Assembly (NCBI GenBank): GCA_964349135.1
Contig: CAYGFK010000005.1
Location: forward strand, 1-57,895
DNA length: 57,895 nt
From: an uncultured Candidatus Saccharibacteria bacterium
GTDB taxonomy: Bacteria > Patescibacteriota > Minisyncoccia > Phycocordibacterales > DSPV01
Direction: 5' to 3'
Under the pieces are notes generated by a model. It was not told where the DNA came from, ran no database searches, and saw only the letters and a program-made list of their open reading frames with translations. Of the stretch, positions 1,890-46,010 are shown one piece after another. Within the stretch, counting starts at the first letter, position 1, and each line of letters opens with the position of its first letter. Position numbers and translations under genes: made by a program.

Positions 1890-3467
1890 CTATTCCATCG
1901 CCCTCATCATCTGCTTGGCCACAGCTTCGATAACTGGCACACTCACAGAATTTCCTGCTTGTTTATACAATGCGGAATCAGAAATCTTCGGTAGAATATA
2001 GTCCTTTGGGAAACCTTGAATTCTAAAACACTCTAAAGGAGTTAGTTTTCTTATTCCTTTTTTATCCTTGATAATTGGTACATTGTGCCCACCTGTTCCC
2101 ATATTTGCAGTTAATGTAGGGCAAACACCACTCTTATTTTCTCTGACATATTGTCTACGCCATTGATAAACTTTACCCTCCTCTTTTACTGAATTTTTTA
2201 GCTTTTCAAACAATGGCTTGCCATTGTAATAGTATTTTTCTGGCACATTTTTCTCTAACAAATCAGTTATTTTAGTATTTAGTTTTATTGGACTAGGAAA
2301 TTCAAATCTTTCTAAATAAAGTTTGTTTTTGAAACCCACGATGTAGATTCGTTCTCGGTTCTGGGGAATATTTCCGTATTCCATAGTATTCAAGACTTTA
2401 ATTTTTACATGATAGCCAAGGTCTTTTAATGCATCCTCAATAATCTTGAAAGTTTTACCACCGTCATGGCTTTTTAGGTTTTTTACATTCTCTAAGAGAA
2501 ATCCTTCTGGTTTTCTTGCCTCTAAGATACGAGCAATATCAAAAAAAAGGTTTCCTCTGCCTTTTTCATCATTAAATCCTTGTCTATACCCAGCAATAGA
2601 AAATGCCTGACAAGGAAAACCACCTAAAAGAAAATCAAAATTAGGCAAATCGTCGATACCAATTTTTCTTATATCCTCAACAACTAATTTTGAATCTTTA
2701 AAATTTAGATCGTAAGTATCTTTGCATTGTGGTTCAAAATCATTTGCAAAAACGGTCTTGAATCCTGCATTTTCAAAACCCATACGAATACCACCTACAC
2801 CAGCAAAAAGATCAATCGTTTTAAACCCGTGTTTCGTTTTCTTTTGCTCTACCTCCCTCGGTTCATTGTTCGGATTACTAATGACTTGAATAACAACGCC
2901 TCGGACTTCAACATCAGTTCTAAATAAGGGCTTCATGTTAGGATTTCTAGCTTCTAGCCTGTATCTATCTTTCTCGGTGTAGAGTTTTTTCAAAGTTGCT
3001 TCGTTGTCATCAATTATTGCGACAACAGTTTGCCCATTTTCTGCTGAGGTTTGGTGTTTTATGACAACAACATCACCATCAAAAATTCCATCCTTAACCA
3101 TAGAATCTCCCACGACACGAAGTGCGTAATAACCCTCTGCCGTTCTAATTTGTGGATTTATTACAGAAACGGAACCATCCCTTTCCTCAATCGCGGGAAG
3201 CGGATAACCGGCTTTGATACTTCCAAGTATTGGAATTTCAATTACCGATTTTATTTCTTTCTTTGGAGTTAAACTTCTAGCAGAATTTTCAGACTTAGAA
3301 AGATATCCCCTGACTTTTAGGGAATCAATGTGTTCGTGAATAGTGGAAACCGCCTTGAGTTTTAACTTCTTCCGTATTTCTTCTATGGTTGGAGATATGC
3401 CATTTTCGGCAAGATAAAGGCTTATGAAGTCGAATACCCGTTTCTGCTTTTTTGTGAGATTTGACAT
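1890..3467 (-). CDS. lexA: LexA repressor (HTH + S24 peptidase) fused to a DNA (cytosine-5) methyltransferase, 525 aa
   Basis: LexA HTH (LTKKQKRVFDFI...PTIEEI...STIHEHIDSL...ARSL), Ala-Gly cleavage site (IKAG), catalytic Ser (GDSM) and Lys (ATLKK). These are followed in frame by C5-MTase motifs DLFAGVGG, GGFPCQ, ENVKNL, QNRERIY, RKLTPLEC and QAGNSV. Start moved to ATG 3467. Confidence 0.92.
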   Translation of the reverse strand: MSNLTKKQKRVFDFISLYLAENGISPTIEEIRKKLKLKAVSTIHEHIDSLKVRGYLSKSENSARSLTPKKEIKSVIEIPILGSIKAGYPLPAIEERDGSVSVINPQIRTAEGYYALRVVGDSMVKDGIFDGDVVVIKHQTSAENGQTVVAIIDDNEATLKKLYTEKDRYRLEARNPNMKPLFRTDVEVRGVVIQVISNPNNEPREVEQKKTKHGFKTIDLFAGVGGIRMGFENAGFKTVFANDFEPQCKDTYDLNFKDSKLVVEDIRKIGIDDLPNFDFLLGGFPCQAFSIAGYRQGFNDEKGRGNLFFDIARILEARKPEGFLLENVKNLKSHDGGKTFKIIEDALKDLGYHVKIKVLNTMEYGNIPQNRERIYIVGFKNKLYLERFEFPSPIKLNTKITDLLEKNVPEKYYYNGKPLFEKLKNSVKEEGKVYQWRRQYVRENKSGVCPTLTANMGTGGHNVPIIKDKKGIRKLTPLECFRIQGFPKDYILPKISDSALYKQAGNSVSVPVIEAVAKQMMRAME

Positions 3468-6746: not shown

Positions 6747-6893
6747 CGCGATGAGGGACTCGAAAGACGGAGGCCGCGAAGCCCCGCCATGGGCGGGTCG
6801 GCCGAGTCGGGGTCGCGACCTTTCGCGTAGCGAAAGAGTTGTGACCGAGTCCCGTTTATTTTATAGCGCGATGAGGGACTCGAAAGACGGAGG
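6747..6893 (+). repeat. Structured cassette (type A) flanked by inverted and direct copies of the tRNA-Val 3' end, plus a second truncated copy
   Basis: 6747-6764 is the reverse complement of tRNA 6676-6693 (17/18). Cassette spans 6765-6846, and CGAGTCCC at 6846-6853 repeats the tRNA. A 27-bp direct repeat lies at 6747-6773 and 6867-6893. Confidence 0.85.
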
Positions 6894-6896
6894 TCG

Positions 6897-27166: not shown

Positions 27167-27289
27167 GCTTGAAGGCACGGGCGGGAATCTCGGCTACCGC
27201 CGCGGGTGGTTCTCGATTTCACTCCGTTCAATAACGAGAACCCTTTCGATTCCCGCACGCACGCAAGCTGTTGCGTGCTCTGTGCTTGA
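27167..27289 (-). repeat. Structured cassette (type B) with inverted and direct copies of the tRNA-Cys 3' end
   Basis: 23-bp exact repeat at 27167-27189 and 27284-27306. A 12-bp inverted copy lies at 27245-27256 and the cassette spans about 27190-27246. Confidence 0.85.
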
Positions 27290-27361
27290 AGGCACGGGCG
27301 GGAATCGAACCCGCGCATGGCGGTTTTGCAGACCGCAGCGTTACCACTTCGCCACCGTGCC
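27290..27361 (-). tRNA. tRNA-Cys(GCA)
   Basis: GCGGT-CTGCAAA-ACCGC anticodon arm and U73 discriminator. Confidence 0.95.
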
Positions 27362-35871: not shown

Positions 35872-35955
35872 GCGCAGGTGGCGGAGTGGTCAATCGCAAC
35901 AGACTGTAAATCTGTCGGCCAATGGCCTACGAAGGTTCGAATCCTTCCCTGCGCA
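35872..35955 (+). tRNA. tRNA-Tyr(GTA)
   Basis: ACAGA-CTGTAAA-TCTGT anticodon arm and a long variable arm. Confidence 0.95.
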
Positions 35956-36158
35956 ATAAAACAAAGGAGGCGGGATGCGAAAGCGTCCCGCCCCTCTTGT
36001 TTTAACGCGGGGAAGGATTCGAAAGACGGAGGCGCGAAGCCCCGCTGAAAGCGGGTTGCCGAGTCGGGGTCGCGACCGCCGAAGGCGAGTCGTGACCGAA
36101 TCTATAGGTTCCCTGCGCAATAAAACAAAGGAGGCGGGATGCGAAAGCGTCCCGCCCC
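35945..36158 (+). repeat. 50-bp direct repeat (tRNA-Tyr 3' end + hairpin) enclosing an inverted tRNA copy and a type A cassette
   Basis: 35945-35994 is identical to 36109-36158. 36006-36023 is the reverse complement of 35936-35953 (17/18). Cassette spans 36024-36097. Confidence 0.9.
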
Positions 36159-36187
36159 CTTTGTTTAGGGGTATTTTTAGGCCTGTG

Positions 36188-42600: not shown

Positions 42601-43599
42601 ATGTCGCATTTCTACGGTGATGCCATATTTTGGCTTGAAGTAGGTAAGATAAAACCAAATCCATATCAGCCACGTCAGGAGTTTGACGAGGCGCGTCTTC
42701 GTGATTTAGCCGAATCTATACGCACGTATGGCGTACTTCAACCTCTCGTGGTGACTCGCAAAGAAGTGCAACGTCCGGACGGGAGTTTATTTGTGGAATA
42801 TGAGCTTGTTTCCGGAGAACGGCGCTTGCGCGCATCGAAACTTGCCGGTATTGCGCAGGTCCCGGCTATCATTCGCAATGATACCGATGATTCAAAGATT
42901 AAACTTGAGCTTGCTATCATCGAAAACCTTCAGCGAGAAGACCTTAATCCTGTGGACCGTGCGAAAGCATTTCAACGCCTTGCTGACGAGTTTTCTTACA
43001 AACATACGGAGATTGCACAGAAGATAGGGAAGAGCCGAGAGTATGTTTCAAATACCCTCCGTATCCTCGCACTACCTGAAGAAATTCTAATTGCTCTTGC
43101 GGCAAAACGTATTTCTGAAGGACACACCCGCCCCATTTTGATGTTGTCGGACCGGCCTGAAGAACAAATGACTCTCTTTAAGGAGGTGATTATGAGACGG
43201 ATGACCGTGCGCGAGGCCGAAGGTATTGCACGTCGCATTGCTTTCGATAAAGTTCGTAAGAAGGACCGAGCCGTGGACCCTGAGATTGTTGAGATGGAGG
43301 AGAAGCTCTCAGAGACCCTTGGAACCCGCGTGCAGATTGAGCGTAAGGAAAAGGGAGGCAAAATACACATTGATTTCTTTTCGCCCGAAGACCTTGCGCA
43401 GATAATTACGATGATAGAAGAGCGTCGTCATGTGCTTGCGCAGAGTCAGGGAGTAATTCCTCCGGAGCGTTCCGCGGAAGAAATCGCGGGTGAGGTTGCT
43501 CAAACTATTGCACAGGAACAGGAGGCGCCGATTGACGATTCGACCGAGCAAGACAATGAAGGGGACAATCTTTACTCCATTCGGGATTTCTCAGTTTAA
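42601..43599 (+). CDS. parB: ParB/Spo0J family partition protein
   Basis: PNPYQPR..F, GVLQPLVV, SGERRLRA, IENLQREDL and an HTH. No parA adjacent. Confidence 0.92.
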   Translation: MSHFYGDAIFWLEVGKIKPNPYQPRQEFDEARLRDLAESIRTYGVLQPLVVTRKEVQRPDGSLFVEYELVSGERRLRASKLAGIAQVPAIIRNDTDDSKIKLELAIIENLQREDLNPVDRAKAFQRLADEFSYKHTEIAQKIGKSREYVSNTLRILALPEEILIALAAKRISEGHTRPILMLSDRPEEQMTLFKEVIMRRMTVREAEGIARRIAFDKVRKKDRAVDPEIVEMEEKLSETLGTRVQIERKEKGGKIHIDFFSPEDLAQIITMIEERRHVLAQSQGVIPPERSAEEIAGEVAQTIAQEQEAPIDDSTEQDNEGDNLYSIRDFSV

Positions 43600-43601
43600 A
43601 T

Positions 43602-43630
43602 AAAAACGGCCCGTAAAGCGGGCCGTTTTT
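43602..43630. terminator. Bidirectional terminator between parB and topA
   Basis: AAAAACGGCCCG-taaag-CGGGCCGTTTTT. Confidence 0.85.
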
Positions 43631-43643
43631 CTATTCCTTCTTT

Positions 43644-43905
43644 TTTCGTCCCGGCTGATGCATATCGCACGCTTTGTTTGAACAGCGTTCGGGAATGGTT
43701 TTCGGTCACACCTCTCACGTTCGCCGTCGCGAACGTTCGGGTGCGACCCCGGCTCGCGGTTTTTGCTTCTGCAAAAACATCGCTCCGCCTTACGAAAACC
43801 TATGCGTACACCGTGAAGACAGTGTACTACTTCTCCACTTTCTTTCGTCCCGGCTGATGCATGTCGCACGCTTTGTTTGAACAGCGTTCGGGAATGGTTT
43901 TCGTA
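43644..43905 (-). repeat. 61-bp duplication of the topA 3' end enclosing a type A-like cassette and a 10-bp inverted target copy
   Basis: 43644-43704 vs 43843-43903 (60/61 identical). TACGAAAACC at 43791-43800 is the reverse complement of 43896-43905. Cassette spans 43705-43792. Confidence 0.9.
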
Positions 43906-46010
43906 CCTTCCATCATGAGACTGCCACAGAGTTGGCAGGTACGTCCGGTCGGCCGGGCTTTGATAGCGAATCGACACTTCGGATAGTTTGAACAGGAGAA
44001 GAATGGGCCAAAGCGTCCGCGACGTTCAACAATTTCTCCCGTTTTACACTCAGGACAGGTAACGCCGGTCTTTGCTTTTTCCTCCTCTTCAGCACTCTTT
44101 TTGATGAATTTACACTTAGGATAGTTTGCACAGGCGACGAATCGTCCGAAGCGCCCATCTCGCTCAATGAGCTTACCCCCGTCTTTCGGGCAAATTTCCC
44201 CGGTCTCCTTCGGCCCCGCAAGCTCAACACCGTCTATGGTGCGCGCGCCTGTACATTCGGGGAACTTTGCGCACGACATAAATTTTCCGGCTTTTGAGAG
44301 CTTGATTATCATTGGTCCACCACATTTAGGACATTTCCACTGTGGGTCAGCGTCGCCAAGATTGGTAATCTTTTCGGCAGTTTTTGATTTCTCTTTCACT
44401 TCTTTGAGGAACGGTTTGTAGAAATCTGAAAGTGTTTTCTCGTATTTACGTTTGCCTAGCGCAATTTCATCGAGCTCGTCTTCCATTCGAGCGGTGAATG
44501 AGTCGCCGATATATTCGTTGAAATTATTCTCAAGGAATCCGGAGACAACCATGCCGGTATCGGTCGGTTGGAGTGAACGCCCTTCTTTGGTGACATATTC
44601 TCGGCTTACGAGAGTTTCGATGATGGAGGCATAGGTTGACGGGCGACCGATACCGCGTTTCTCGAGCTCTTTAATAAGGCCAGCTTCGGTATATCGAGGT
44701 GGTGGTTGCGTCTGTTTTTCTTCAGTGTGTATTTCGTGGAGCGAGAGTTTTTCGCCTTCGGAGAGCTTGGGCAATTCAGTATCTTCTCCGCGCGCTTCCG
44801 GGTCGGCAAGTAGCCATCCCGGGAAAATAACTCGAGAACCGGTTACGGCAAAATCTGGTATGGGATTTTCTTCGACATTGGCAACGACTTTGGTACGAAG
44901 CGTCTTTGCGTCCGGCATTTGGCTCGCAACGGTTCTCTGCCAAATGAGTCGATATACCTTCTTTTGGTCGTCCGTTGTCCCGACGGCAGTCTTTGAAAGG
45001 TCGGTCGGGCGTATGGCTTCATGGGCTTCTTGCGCATTCTTTACCTTTTTTGAGTAGGTGCGTAGTGAGACAAATTCTTTTCCGAATTTTTTAGTGATGG
45101 TATCGGCCACCATATGTTTTGCAACCTCAGCGAGGTTTGTGCTGTCGGTACGCATGTAGGTGATGTGTCCCGCTTCGTAGAGTTTTTGTGCCGCACGCAT
45201 GGTGCGTCCGGGAGAGAAACCAAGACGAGAACTTGCCGTTTGTTGTAGGGTAGAGGTGATGAACGGTGCCTTGGGTGACCGGGCAACTTCCGTTTCAGTT
45301 ATTTTTTTGATTGACCAAGAGCCTTTTTTTGCTTCTGTAACAATTCGGTCTACTTCAACACGTTCTCGGGGCTCTTCGGCGCACGTGAACGTGAGCGTAC
45401 CTTGTGTGGCGTTTGTAAGGTCGGCTGTGATAGACCAGAATGTTTCAGGTTTAAAACTTTCGATTTCACGCTCTCGTACGGCGAGAATGCGAAGGGCTGG
45501 GGATTGTACGCGTCCGGCTGATAGCCCGTATCGCACCTTCTTCCAGATGAGGCCGGAAAGGTCGTAGCCGACGAGTCGGTCGAGCACGCGACGCGCTTCT
45601 TGTGCGCGACGAAGGTTTTCATCTATCTTTCGCGGATTTTTAAGCGCTTCTATGACGGCCTCTTTAGTAATCTCATGATAAACCGCCCGTGAGATGGGGA
45701 TTTTGATTTTCTTCTCTTTTAGGATTTCGGCGAGGTGCCAGGCAATTGCTTCGCCTTCACGGTCGGGGTCGGTTGCGAGAATAATCTCACTGGCCTTTTT
45801 TGCCGCCGAGGTAATGTCCGAGACCACTTTCTCTTTTGCTTTTACGATTTCGTAATGCGGGATAAAACCACCTGCGATATCAATCGCATTTTTGTTCGAT
45901 TTCGGGAGGTCTCGGATGTGACCGACAGACGCTTTCACAATGTATTCTTTCCCGAGGTATTTAGAAATCGTCTTTGATTTTGCAGGCGACTCTACTATAA
46001 GGAGTTTCAT
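43827..46010 (-). CDS. topA: DNA topoisomerase I (type IA) with C-terminal Zn ribbons
   Basis: LLIVESPAK, ATDPDREGE, GRVQS, HITYMRTD (catalytic Tyr) and four C4 Zn fingers. Confidence 0.98.
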   Translation of the reverse strand: MKLLIVESPAKSKTISKYLGKEYIVKASVGHIRDLPKSNKNAIDIAGGFIPHYEIVKAKEKVVSDITSAAKKASEIILATDPDREGEAIAWHLAEILKEKKIKIPISRAVYHEITKEAVIEALKNPRKIDENLRRAQEARRVLDRLVGYDLSGLIWKKVRYGLSAGRVQSPALRILAVREREIESFKPETFWSITADLTNATQGTLTFTCAEEPRERVEVDRIVTEAKKGSWSIKKITETEVARSPKAPFITSTLQQTASSRLGFSPGRTMRAAQKLYEAGHITYMRTDSTNLAEVAKHMVADTITKKFGKEFVSLRTYSKKVKNAQEAHEAIRPTDLSKTAVGTTDDQKKVYRLIWQRTVASQMPDAKTLRTKVVANVEENPIPDFAVTGSRVIFPGWLLADPEARGEDTELPKLSEGEKLSLHEIHTEEKQTQPPPRYTEAGLIKELEKRGIGRPSTYASIIETLVSREYVTKEGRSLQPTDTGMVVSGFLENNFNEYIGDSFTARMEDELDEIALGKRKYEKTLSDFYKPFLKEVKEKSKTAEKITNLGDADPQWKCPKCGGPMIIKLSKAGKFMSCAKFPECTGARTIDGVELAGPKETGEICPKDGGKLIERDGRFGRFVACANYPKCKFIKKSAEEEEKAKTGVTCPECKTGEIVERRGRFGPFFSCSNYPKCRFAIKARPTGRTCQLCGSLMMEGTKTIPERCSNKACDMHQPGRKKVEK

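Follow-up and report, generated by a model that had tools for sequence, protein, structure and literature searches.

A recurrent, probably mobile cassette without a protein gene at the 3' end of topA in an uncultured Saccharibacteria genome and its relatives

How did the DNA topoisomerase I gene (topA) of an uncultured Candidatus Saccharibacteria bacterium come to have two alternative 3' ends, which of the two is the original, and what is the structured segment that lies between them? We addressed these questions in a window of 57,895 nt (the whole stretch of DNA analyzed, contig CAYGFK010000005.1 of assembly GCA_964349135.1, forward strand), which belongs to a genome of 711 kb with a completeness score of 100% (G000 below), and in related genomes of the same order. 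The original prediction was that a cassette of the kind found behind tRNA genes had also hit topA. We conclude that the cassette is probably a mobile unit without a protein gene which replaces the end of the gene that it enters, that it combines a structured core with a guide complementary to its target, and that it spreads horizontally, with topA as a recurrent niche. This reading builds on the anatomy of the locus, a fold of the sense strand, the recurrent and polymorphic insertion at topA, a divergence of the coding type between the spare and the native gene end in relatives, and the covariation between guide and site.

Anatomy of the topA 3' end

The topA gene occupies positions 43827..46010 on the minus strand and encodes 727 amino acids with the Pfam domains Toprim, Topoisom_bac and three copies of Zn_ribbon_Top1. 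Its last 25 codons come from the element, and the open reading frame (ORF) ends ...HQPGRKKVEK*, in agreement with the active end ...QPGRKKVEK* that had been read earlier. A 64-nt direct repeat (43840-43903 and 43641-43704, 97% identical, spacing 199) begins at C43903, and the left junction, which is the insertion point, lies between A43904 and C43903 (43903..43904, minus strand), inside the threonine codon ACG of GGT A|CG AAA ACC. The codon position of this junction was identical in the 22 genomes analyzed in detail and in 23 matches to the junction pattern described below.

One unit of the element runs from 43903 to 43705 on the minus strand (199 nt) and consists, in this order, of a replacement gene end (c1), a small hairpin (H0), a guide and a structured core that ends in GTGAC. 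The element-borne c1 (43827..43903, minus strand; 77 nt including the stop codon at 43829-43827) begins with CGAAAACC, reads T-KTIPERCSNKACDMHQPGRKKVEK and ends KKVEK. H0 (TACACTGT-CTTC-ACGGTGTA; 43807..43826, minus strand) is a conserved module of the element; a 9-bp hairpin with a 4-nt loop was present in 23/25 topA-linked elements, with compensatory changes. The guide, or anti-target, GGTTTTCGTA (43791..43800, minus strand) is complementary to TA|CGAAAACC, crosses the junction by 2 nt and is an exact inverted copy of TACGAAAACC at 43896-43905 (inverted repeat I3). The core (43705..43790, minus strand; 86 nt) is a three-way junction in which helix P2 (GGC/GCC) bears a hairpin, hp1, helix P3 (GGTCGCACC/GGTGTGACC) bears another, hp2, and the terminal GTGAC lies at 43709-43705. 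The small hairpin, the inverted segment and the cassette that had been described between the two gene ends correspond to 43826-43807, 43800-43791 and 43790-43705. According to the ORF list, the content of the 199-nt unit is c1 plus noncoding structure only, with no homing endonuclease ORF.

Downstream of the unit lies the displaced gene end, c2 (43631..43704, minus strand; stop codon at 43633-43631), which begins with the same CGAAAACC, ends KKKE* and is now untranslated. As predicted, c2 still reads KTIPERCSNKACDMHQPGRKKKE* in frame with a single silent C/T difference from c1 (GAC/GAT) and is followed by a terminator. The latter (43602..43630) is the native bidirectional terminator, a perfect 12-bp inverted repeat (I2), which is contiguous with c2 and is common to topA (via c2) and to the convergent gene parB, whose stop lies at 43599 and in which parB domains were found. 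A direct repeat of the target's 3' end flanks the insert, and topA is restored. The cassettes behind tRNA-Val and tRNA-Tyr share the layout seen here, in which the target recurs inverted on the 5' side of the core and directly repeated right after GTGAC (from 43704 at topA).

Next, we looked at which gene end is the original. In the window, c2 is followed by the native terminator and then by the end of parB, and the same stop-then-terminator layout occurs in G001, a genome of the same genus with an empty site. The tail after c1 (GTGGAGAAGTAG, ..KVEK*) recurs in the elements of G004 and G005, and the H0 that follows this tail recurs in G004 and is only partly kept in G005; c2 tails vary between species like native tails. 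Furthermore, truncations, frameshifts and mutations of invariant zinc-ribbon cysteines were confined to c2 (in G164, G251, G056, G204, G197, G364, G236, G002 and G153), and c1 was always intact. Because c2 is contiguous with the native terminator, the c1 tail is shared among elements and decay is limited to c2, we read from the sequence comparison that c2 is the displaced original end and that the element supplies the working one. In particular, both the stop codon and the final two cysteines of the terminal zinc ribbon come from c1. These results bear out the proposals that the downstream copy is the original gene end and that the insertion rebuilt the 3' end. Of the comparison with relatives that had been suggested for this point, layout and tails marked c2 as the original, but sequence identity within the genus could not tell the native from the foreign end, since the species representatives are ~70-80% identical and thus too diverged.

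Two other relations between c1 and c2 were considered and rejected. Splicing of c2 onto topA, an intron-like use, does not hold as a general function, given that c2 is truncated or frameshifted in several genomes and c1 never is. A pair of template and variable repeats, as in a diversity-generating retroelement, was rejected because the differences between c1 and c2 are not adenine-specific.

Cassette fold, guide and recurrence at topA

We used two covariance models, R1 and R2, which together define the cassette family; the family is unnamed and not in Rfam, and we found no description of it in the literature searched. To avoid circularity, R2 was trained on nine tRNA-linked copies only, with the topA copy left out, and was run over the whole window with filters off. 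The topA copy scored 63.8 bits against R2 (E = 1.3e-16), with the next non-family match at E > 0.04, and it was likewise found with R1 (E = 6.5e-22). The fold of the topA cassette had a z score of -7.3 relative to shuffled sequences, with all helices paired, and its core follows the pattern A-NNN-CGGAG, hp1, CGAG-N'N'N'-GGGGTCG, hp2, GTGAC. The homology to the tRNA-linked copies claimed in the original prediction is therefore beyond chance. In the search of the window against Rfam 15, only tRNAs reached the gathering score and there was no intron match; in 43590-43920 at E <= 10, only terminator-type noise appeared, with no match to the RtT/tRNA-linked repeat model.

In the family fold, P1 is the guide paired with the site copy; P2, only 3 bp long, shows covariation in all copies and bears the variable hairpin hp1; and P3, which bears the variable hairpin hp2, is nearly invariant at its base (GGUCG/UGACC), where a G.U pair is conserved. 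Across 63 copies from about 25 genomes, in an alignment fitted to the model and hence somewhat favoring pairing, 95.8% of cells were paired, both-side changes occurred in 27/27 pairs, and the covariation score was 0.68 (0.20 for shuffles, <=0.145 for slid controls). G.T pairs far outnumbered A.C pairs in this fold (128 versus 18), which indicates that it is the host gene's sense strand that folds, in the form of either RNA or single-stranded DNA.

The guide segment was found by best match, and its position is fixed by the adjoining conserved start of P2. In 25/25 topA insertions, its sequence was the reverse complement of positions -2 to +9/+11 of the resident site, with 9-13 contiguous matches in 23/25. 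Moreover, the guide tracked every synonymous wobble position: four positions covaried (position -2, with C:G 17, G:C 5 and U:A 3; positions +2 and +8, with four pair types each; and position +5, with A/G), and the guide-site covariation score was reached by 0/500 shuffles. Wherever c1 and c2 differed, the guide followed c1 and not c2, which indicates that guide, c1 and core are a co-inherited unit (43903-43705 here). In old insertions with a decayed c2, the guide:site helix was intact in 6/7 cases (G164, G251, G056, G204, G197 and G364; not G236), so that the helix appears to be maintained in the integrated state.

We then looked into how the cassettes are distributed. Among 61 genomes of the same order scanned with the model, copies were present in 53 (1-46 per genome) and there was no copy in 8. 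The genome of the window has 13 copies, of which 11 lie just 3' of tRNA genes, one at topA and one in a duplicated segment. In the two relatives sampled, G019 and G047 (the latter with 46 copies in a 0.8-Mb genome), almost all copies follow a tRNA or tmRNA gene on the same strand, at a distance of 30-100 nt, and the sole non-tRNA case is again topA, at the same codon (locus L042). For topA itself, a strict junction pattern, TGAC|CRAARACNATHCCNGA, which joins the cassette end to the TKTIPE codons, was scanned in 401 genomes from 223 genera of the order. It was found in 22/401 genomes and 18/223 genera, and the reversed pattern used as a control had 0 matches. Six more topA inserts, which the strict pattern had missed, were recognized by eye among 15 further same-genus genomes, so 22/401 is a lower bound; in all, this topA codon holds an insert in no fewer than 28 related genomes, which belong to many families. 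Within the genus of the window, the insert is present in G002 and G004, rearranged in G005, and absent from G001 and G003, where the stop is followed by ordinary downstream sequence. Empty topA sites were also seen in G010, G017, G217, G220, G230, G271, G291, G321, G377 and others.

Recurrence at one codon, together with the empty sites of the congeners G001 and G003, sustains the claim that the element is not tRNA-specific and that mobility is to be favored over a function in tRNA processing. We would refine this claim in that the target is not arbitrary but T-loop-like, leaving room for a residual RNA function. The topA site GGTA|CGAAAACC resembles the tRNA T-loop site GGTT|CGAATCC (consensus GGNA|CNAARAC versus GGTT|CRAATCC), and because of this resemblance topA looks, from its sequence, like a T-loop-like off-target that has turned into a stable niche.

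The topA units were usually about 190-230 nt long across the ~28 loci examined, with a few enlarged by insertions or nesting. In G109 (locus L083, contig C12), two complete units are stacked in the order c1-unit-c2a-unit-c2b, with each guide matching the gene-end copy on its left. In a tree of the cores, built with the P1 columns removed and limited in resolution by the short alignment, the topA label needed 12 changes versus 19.6 for shuffled labels (0/500 as low). The topA core of G000 was sister to that of G002, apart from the tRNA-linked cores of G000 itself, and both sat in a seven-member topA-linked clade with G216, G047, G109, G204 and G117, which represent four other families.

Two congeneric loci have peculiarities of their own. 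The hp2 of the G004 cassette (L027) holds an extra insertion of ~150 nt. In G005 (L030), the ..KKV tail is kept with TAG instead of GAG, the core is replaced by unrelated sequence, and the second gene-end copy begins 9 nt further upstream.

Source of the spare end and rival explanations

On the explanation that we favor, the element has inserted into the T-loop-like GGTA|CGAAAACC within the last zinc-ribbon codons of topA. The gene stays intact, as c1 takes the place of the displaced c2, which remains downstream with the native terminator and decays. The spread of the element from genome to genome would be horizontal, as it is for homing or integrative elements, with c1 brought from the donor. 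The guide may determine that the target is cut at A|C, whether it does so on a folded DNA single strand or flags the site to a nuclease. A trans-acting enzyme, host-encoded or other, might complete the reaction; alternatively, repair might copy the element out of incoming donor DNA, and such copying would also co-convert bases just upstream of the junction.

Whether the spare end came from elsewhere can be judged from its divergence, which we compared over the 19 codons (57 nt) shared by c1 and c2. The two copies were near-identical (0-1 differences, 98-100%) in G000, G047, G140, G106 and G026. Such identity would be expected from a self-templated insertion in place, in which only the core arrives and a staggered cut or copy-back synthesis writes the guide and the direct copy from the resident gene, and the same process would explain why, in 25/25 genomes, the guide fits the resident gene even at position -2, which is not part of the unit. 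We nevertheless hold it to be unlikely, because in 12 genomes c1 and c2 differed at 9-21/57 nt but at only 0-4/19 amino acids, a divergence that an in-place duplicate could not reach. The diverged pairs include switches between serine codons TCA and AGC and between arginine codons CGT and AGA, the pooled ratio of nonsynonymous to synonymous differences (pN/pS) was 0.10 for c1/c2 pairs versus 0.19 between functional topA genes of different genomes, and a neutral-decay simulation matched the observed amino-acid conservation in 0/20,000 runs per diverged pair. This protein-conserved divergence excludes an in-place duplicate with an untranslated downstream copy, so that one of the two copies must have evolved in another functional topA, and it indicates that the spare end in these 12 genomes is a putative horizontally acquired replacement. 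In addition, an insertion written in place does not fit with a guide that tracks c1 rather than c2, nor with a tail after c1 (..VEK* plus H0) that is conserved among elements and is not a local copy of the gene end. The middle gene-end copy of the tandem locus in G109 is the most divergent of that locus, which also speaks against writing in place and fits with each unit arriving with its own gene end.

The sense-strand fold and the constant co-orientation with the host gene are compatible with a nonmobile, cis-acting structured RNA as well, that is, a 3' trailer or 3' untranslated region acting in processing, stability or termination, which arose by local duplication and was kept by selection; the intact helix in 6/7 old insertions suggests selection in the integrated state. 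This explanation appears quite unlikely to us, since presence and absence differ among congeners, the distribution is patchy and 8/61 relatives have no copy. Moreover, copies stack in tandem, the divergence of the spare gene end looks foreign, and the cassette is usually separated from the tRNA by an intrinsic terminator and would therefore be poorly transcribed. We think it highly doubtful that the cassette is the scar of a larger integrase-borne island or prophage, with attL and attR left side by side after deletion of the cargo. A gene-restoring direct repeat of the target's 3' end is a hallmark of elements that integrate into tRNA genes, a tyrosine recombinase is present in nearly every genome, and in the genome of the window a match to serine integrases lies close to the tmRNA gene (contig C2). 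Such a scar is opposed by the compact unit at most of the ~28 topA loci with its constant order of H0, guide and core, by the single-strand covariation of the core, which is unexpected for duplex att arms, by a copy number that follows no integrase family tested, and by the lack of a phage copy confirmed by the covariance model. Lastly, a collapsed or mis-joined repeat in the assembly is very unlikely, to the point that we give it next to no credence, because the same architecture at the same codon, with lineage-specific sequence, recurs in more than 25 independently assembled genomes.

Several observations weigh against a mobile, gene-end-replacing cassette. In G000, c1 and c2 are 98% identical, so that this copy alone is uninformative on foreign origin and is compatible with a recent arrival, an in-place duplication or gene conversion. 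G000 and G002 have sister cores but c1 copies with an identity of only about 70%, which suggests long residence in the genus, and the topA-linked cores as a whole are clustered but not monophyletic in the short alignment. Guide position -2 lies outside the 199-nt unit, and simple site-specific insertion fails to explain its perfect match, which would fit a pairing requirement by the cut, upstream co-conversion in repair-type homing or later correction within the hairpin. Furthermore, no partner enzyme was identified among the families searched. Reverse transcriptase (RVT_1) was absent from the complete genome of the window and from G047 (46 copies), G019 and G041. The DEDD domain of IS110 (PF01548) was present in 3/61 genomes and absent from G000 and 58/61, and the TnpB marker PF07282 passed the cut-off in 1/61, with no match in G000. 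Large serine recombinases are present in G000 but do not track the cassette copy number, and one Xer-like tyrosine recombinase is found in 57/61 genomes, including cassette-free ones, and hence cannot discriminate. A RAYT-like HUH Y1 gene went undetected (E <= 0.001) in G019, G041, G056 and G140.

Candidate systems were accordingly set aside on the basis of their enzymes: a group II intron or other retroelement (no RVT_1 in G000, G047 or G019, and no Rfam intron match), IS110/IS1111 (no DEDD gene beside the cassette, whose neighbors are topA and parB) and a TnpB/IscB omega-RNA (a TnpB-type nuclease gene essentially absent, 1/61). The PF00589 matches look like one housekeeping Xer per genome, and the element itself has no integrase. 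RAYT-like Y1 genes are found in 40/61 relatives, and the genomes without a detected one include several that are cassette-rich and one with a fresh-looking topA insertion; a Y1/RAYT-like protein is thus an attractive but doubtful partner, having REP-like palindromes of its own and no clear link to cassette presence or to the youth of insertions. We see a roughly even chance that the missing partner will prove to be of a known recombinase or nuclease type, which would make the element a nonautonomous variant.

Possible carriers were searched for among viral sequences. The strict pattern had 0 matches in viral contigs, the loose pattern had 77, of which the model confirmed one, and the cassette had no BLAST match among GenBank phages. 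The confirmed case (L110, IMGVR_UViG_3300033463_005745, 2850-3319) consists of tandem cassettes at the end of the stretch, with no tRNA gene in the fetched stretch; this IMG/VR match looks like host DNA rather than a phage copy.

Known systems and sibling elements

Elements that integrate into tRNA or tmRNA genes carry the 3' part of their target, are flanked by direct repeats, restore the gene, cross over at the T-loop and stack in tandem. The cassette shares with them, and with their gene-less derivatives, the cis-mobilizable elements (CIMEs), the carried 3' part of the target, the direct repeat, the T-loop position and the stacking. It is unlike them in its size of about 200 nt, in having no integrase, in that one family serves many tRNAs and topA with matched arms, and in its internal inverted site copy with single-strand covariation; in addition, no integrase family tested tracks the cassette.

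Single-stranded DNA offers further parallels. IS200/IS605 and REP/RAYT elements transpose as single strands by HUH Y1 enzymes, with internal guides that pair to choose the cleavage site, and hairpin elements among them are served in trans by a single gene. A strand-specific fold, a short guide and nonautonomous, multicopy behavior are common to these and to the cassette, and there is a RAYT-like gene in G000; however, IS200/IS605 elements carry no replacement gene end, and the RAYT-like gene has palindromes unrelated to the cassette. Integron attC sites and the attP(+) hairpin of CTX phage are folded single-strand sites, and CTX uses the host XerCD with no element-encoded enzyme. Here the likeness lies in a structure conserved over sequence and in inverted segments that fold to imitate a duplex target; the difference is that the target of the cassette is T-loop-like and not dif or attI.

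Noncoding RNAs that set a site by pairing come close in another respect. The bridge (seek) RNAs of IS110/IS1111 and the omega-RNAs of TnpB have a structured noncoding domain whose target-complementary sequence sets the site, and the cassette likewise has a structured domain with a target complement, but the partner proteins are absent and the fold is different. The tRNA-linked repeats of E. coli (RtT RNA, RF00391) resemble the cassette in that they, too, follow tRNA genes and include a duplicate of the tRNA 3' end, whereas the cassette has no Rfam match (E up to 10 in 43590-43920). To our knowledge, neither topA or another protein-gene target nor an inverted guide has been described for RtT RNA or tRNA-linked repeats.

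For replacement of the end of a protein gene, a parallel among the systems compared is found in the mobile open reading frame (mORF) elements of fungal mitochondria, which replace gene ends in Allomyces (atp6) and Glomus (atp6, atp9, cox2 and nad3) (PMC3630166). As in the cassette, a functional foreign C-terminus lies upstream and the native one is displaced downstream, nucleotide identity is low and protein identity high, and the host gene remains functional (PMC3630166). Between the inserted and the native C-terminus of these fungal elements, identity was 63.5% at the nucleotide and 91% at the amino-acid level, and the pattern was interpreted as horizontal transfer (PMC3630166). The cassette is unlike an mORF, which encodes a LAGLIDADG or GIY-YIG endonuclease that drives homing (PMC3630166), in that it has no ORF of this kind, has a three-way junction and a guide instead, and has tRNA genes as its main targets.

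Since each test against a known family failed on a defining feature, the cassettes might be held to be categorically new. As a tentative proposal, which we consider possible but distinctly less than probable, they would form a new class of protein-less mobile elements with a nucleic-acid address. The guide, 10-13 nt long, would pair across the cut, and the conserved three-way junction would be either catalytic (a ribozyme or its DNA-level equivalent) or a handle for a ubiquitous host enzyme. A change of guide and gene end would retarget the element from tRNA T-loops to an essential gene, making it a natural, minimal and programmable system for gene-end replacement.

If the cassettes are mobile as we propose, ultra-small bacteria hold a very abundant protein-less mobile element of ~200 nt (up to 46 copies per 0.8-Mb genome), and essential genes are invaded harmlessly because the element carries a spare gene end, with the site picked by a short complementary segment. 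The topA copies are informative in this respect: their synonymous wobble positions reveal base-by-base tracking by the guide and an origin of the spare end in other genomes, neither of which invariant tRNA T-loops can reveal. This raises the question of how DNA is exchanged in candidate phyla radiation (CPR) genomes, which have few classical transposons, and that of whether base pairing can select a site when no enzyme dedicated to the task is encoded, with use as a small programmable insertion tool in view.

The RAYT-like gene of G000 (226 amino acids; contig C12, L185, 1466-2146, minus strand) contains the motifs HVLNRG, NHYHLL and YIHLNP. It is flanked on both sides by a perfect palindrome, ATCTGGACTT-NNN-AAGTCCAGAT, with one more inside its coding sequence. 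Of the six copies of this palindrome in the genome, four are on contig C12, and they are unrelated to the cassettes; gene and palindromes together look like a small REP-RAYT-type system in a CPR genome.

Two sibling copies of the topA cassette lie in the window on the plus strand, one behind tRNA-Val(GAC) (6755..6853; R1, 86.9 bits) and one behind tRNA-Tyr (36014..36104; R1, 72.6 bits). The latter is flanked by a 58-nt direct repeat (35945-36002 and 36109-36166, 97% identical) that comprises the tRNA 3' end and the whole intrinsic terminator, so that each copy of the gene end has a terminator of its own. Behind the tRNA-Val cassette, 6867-6896 is a 30-nt second copy of the cassette's 5' part (the inverted tRNA-Val arm plus AAGACGGAGG), which has the look of a tandem unit that was cut short. 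Another type of cassette (27168-27281, minus strand) stands behind tRNA-Cys (27290-27361) in the same layout as the topA cassette: an H0 hairpin (AGCACGCAACAGCTTGCGTGCG) and an inverted T-arm copy (TGCGGGAATCGAA) are followed by a different, shorter core, and the cassette ends with a 23-nt direct copy of the tRNA-Cys 3' end (R1, only E = 0.26). On contig C2 of the same genome (L007, about 68560-68900), an intact tRNA-Ile(TAT) is accompanied by a cassette within the anticodon arm of a second, split tRNA-Ile; the split gene differs in sequence from the intact one, and the element there carries a whole replacement gene.

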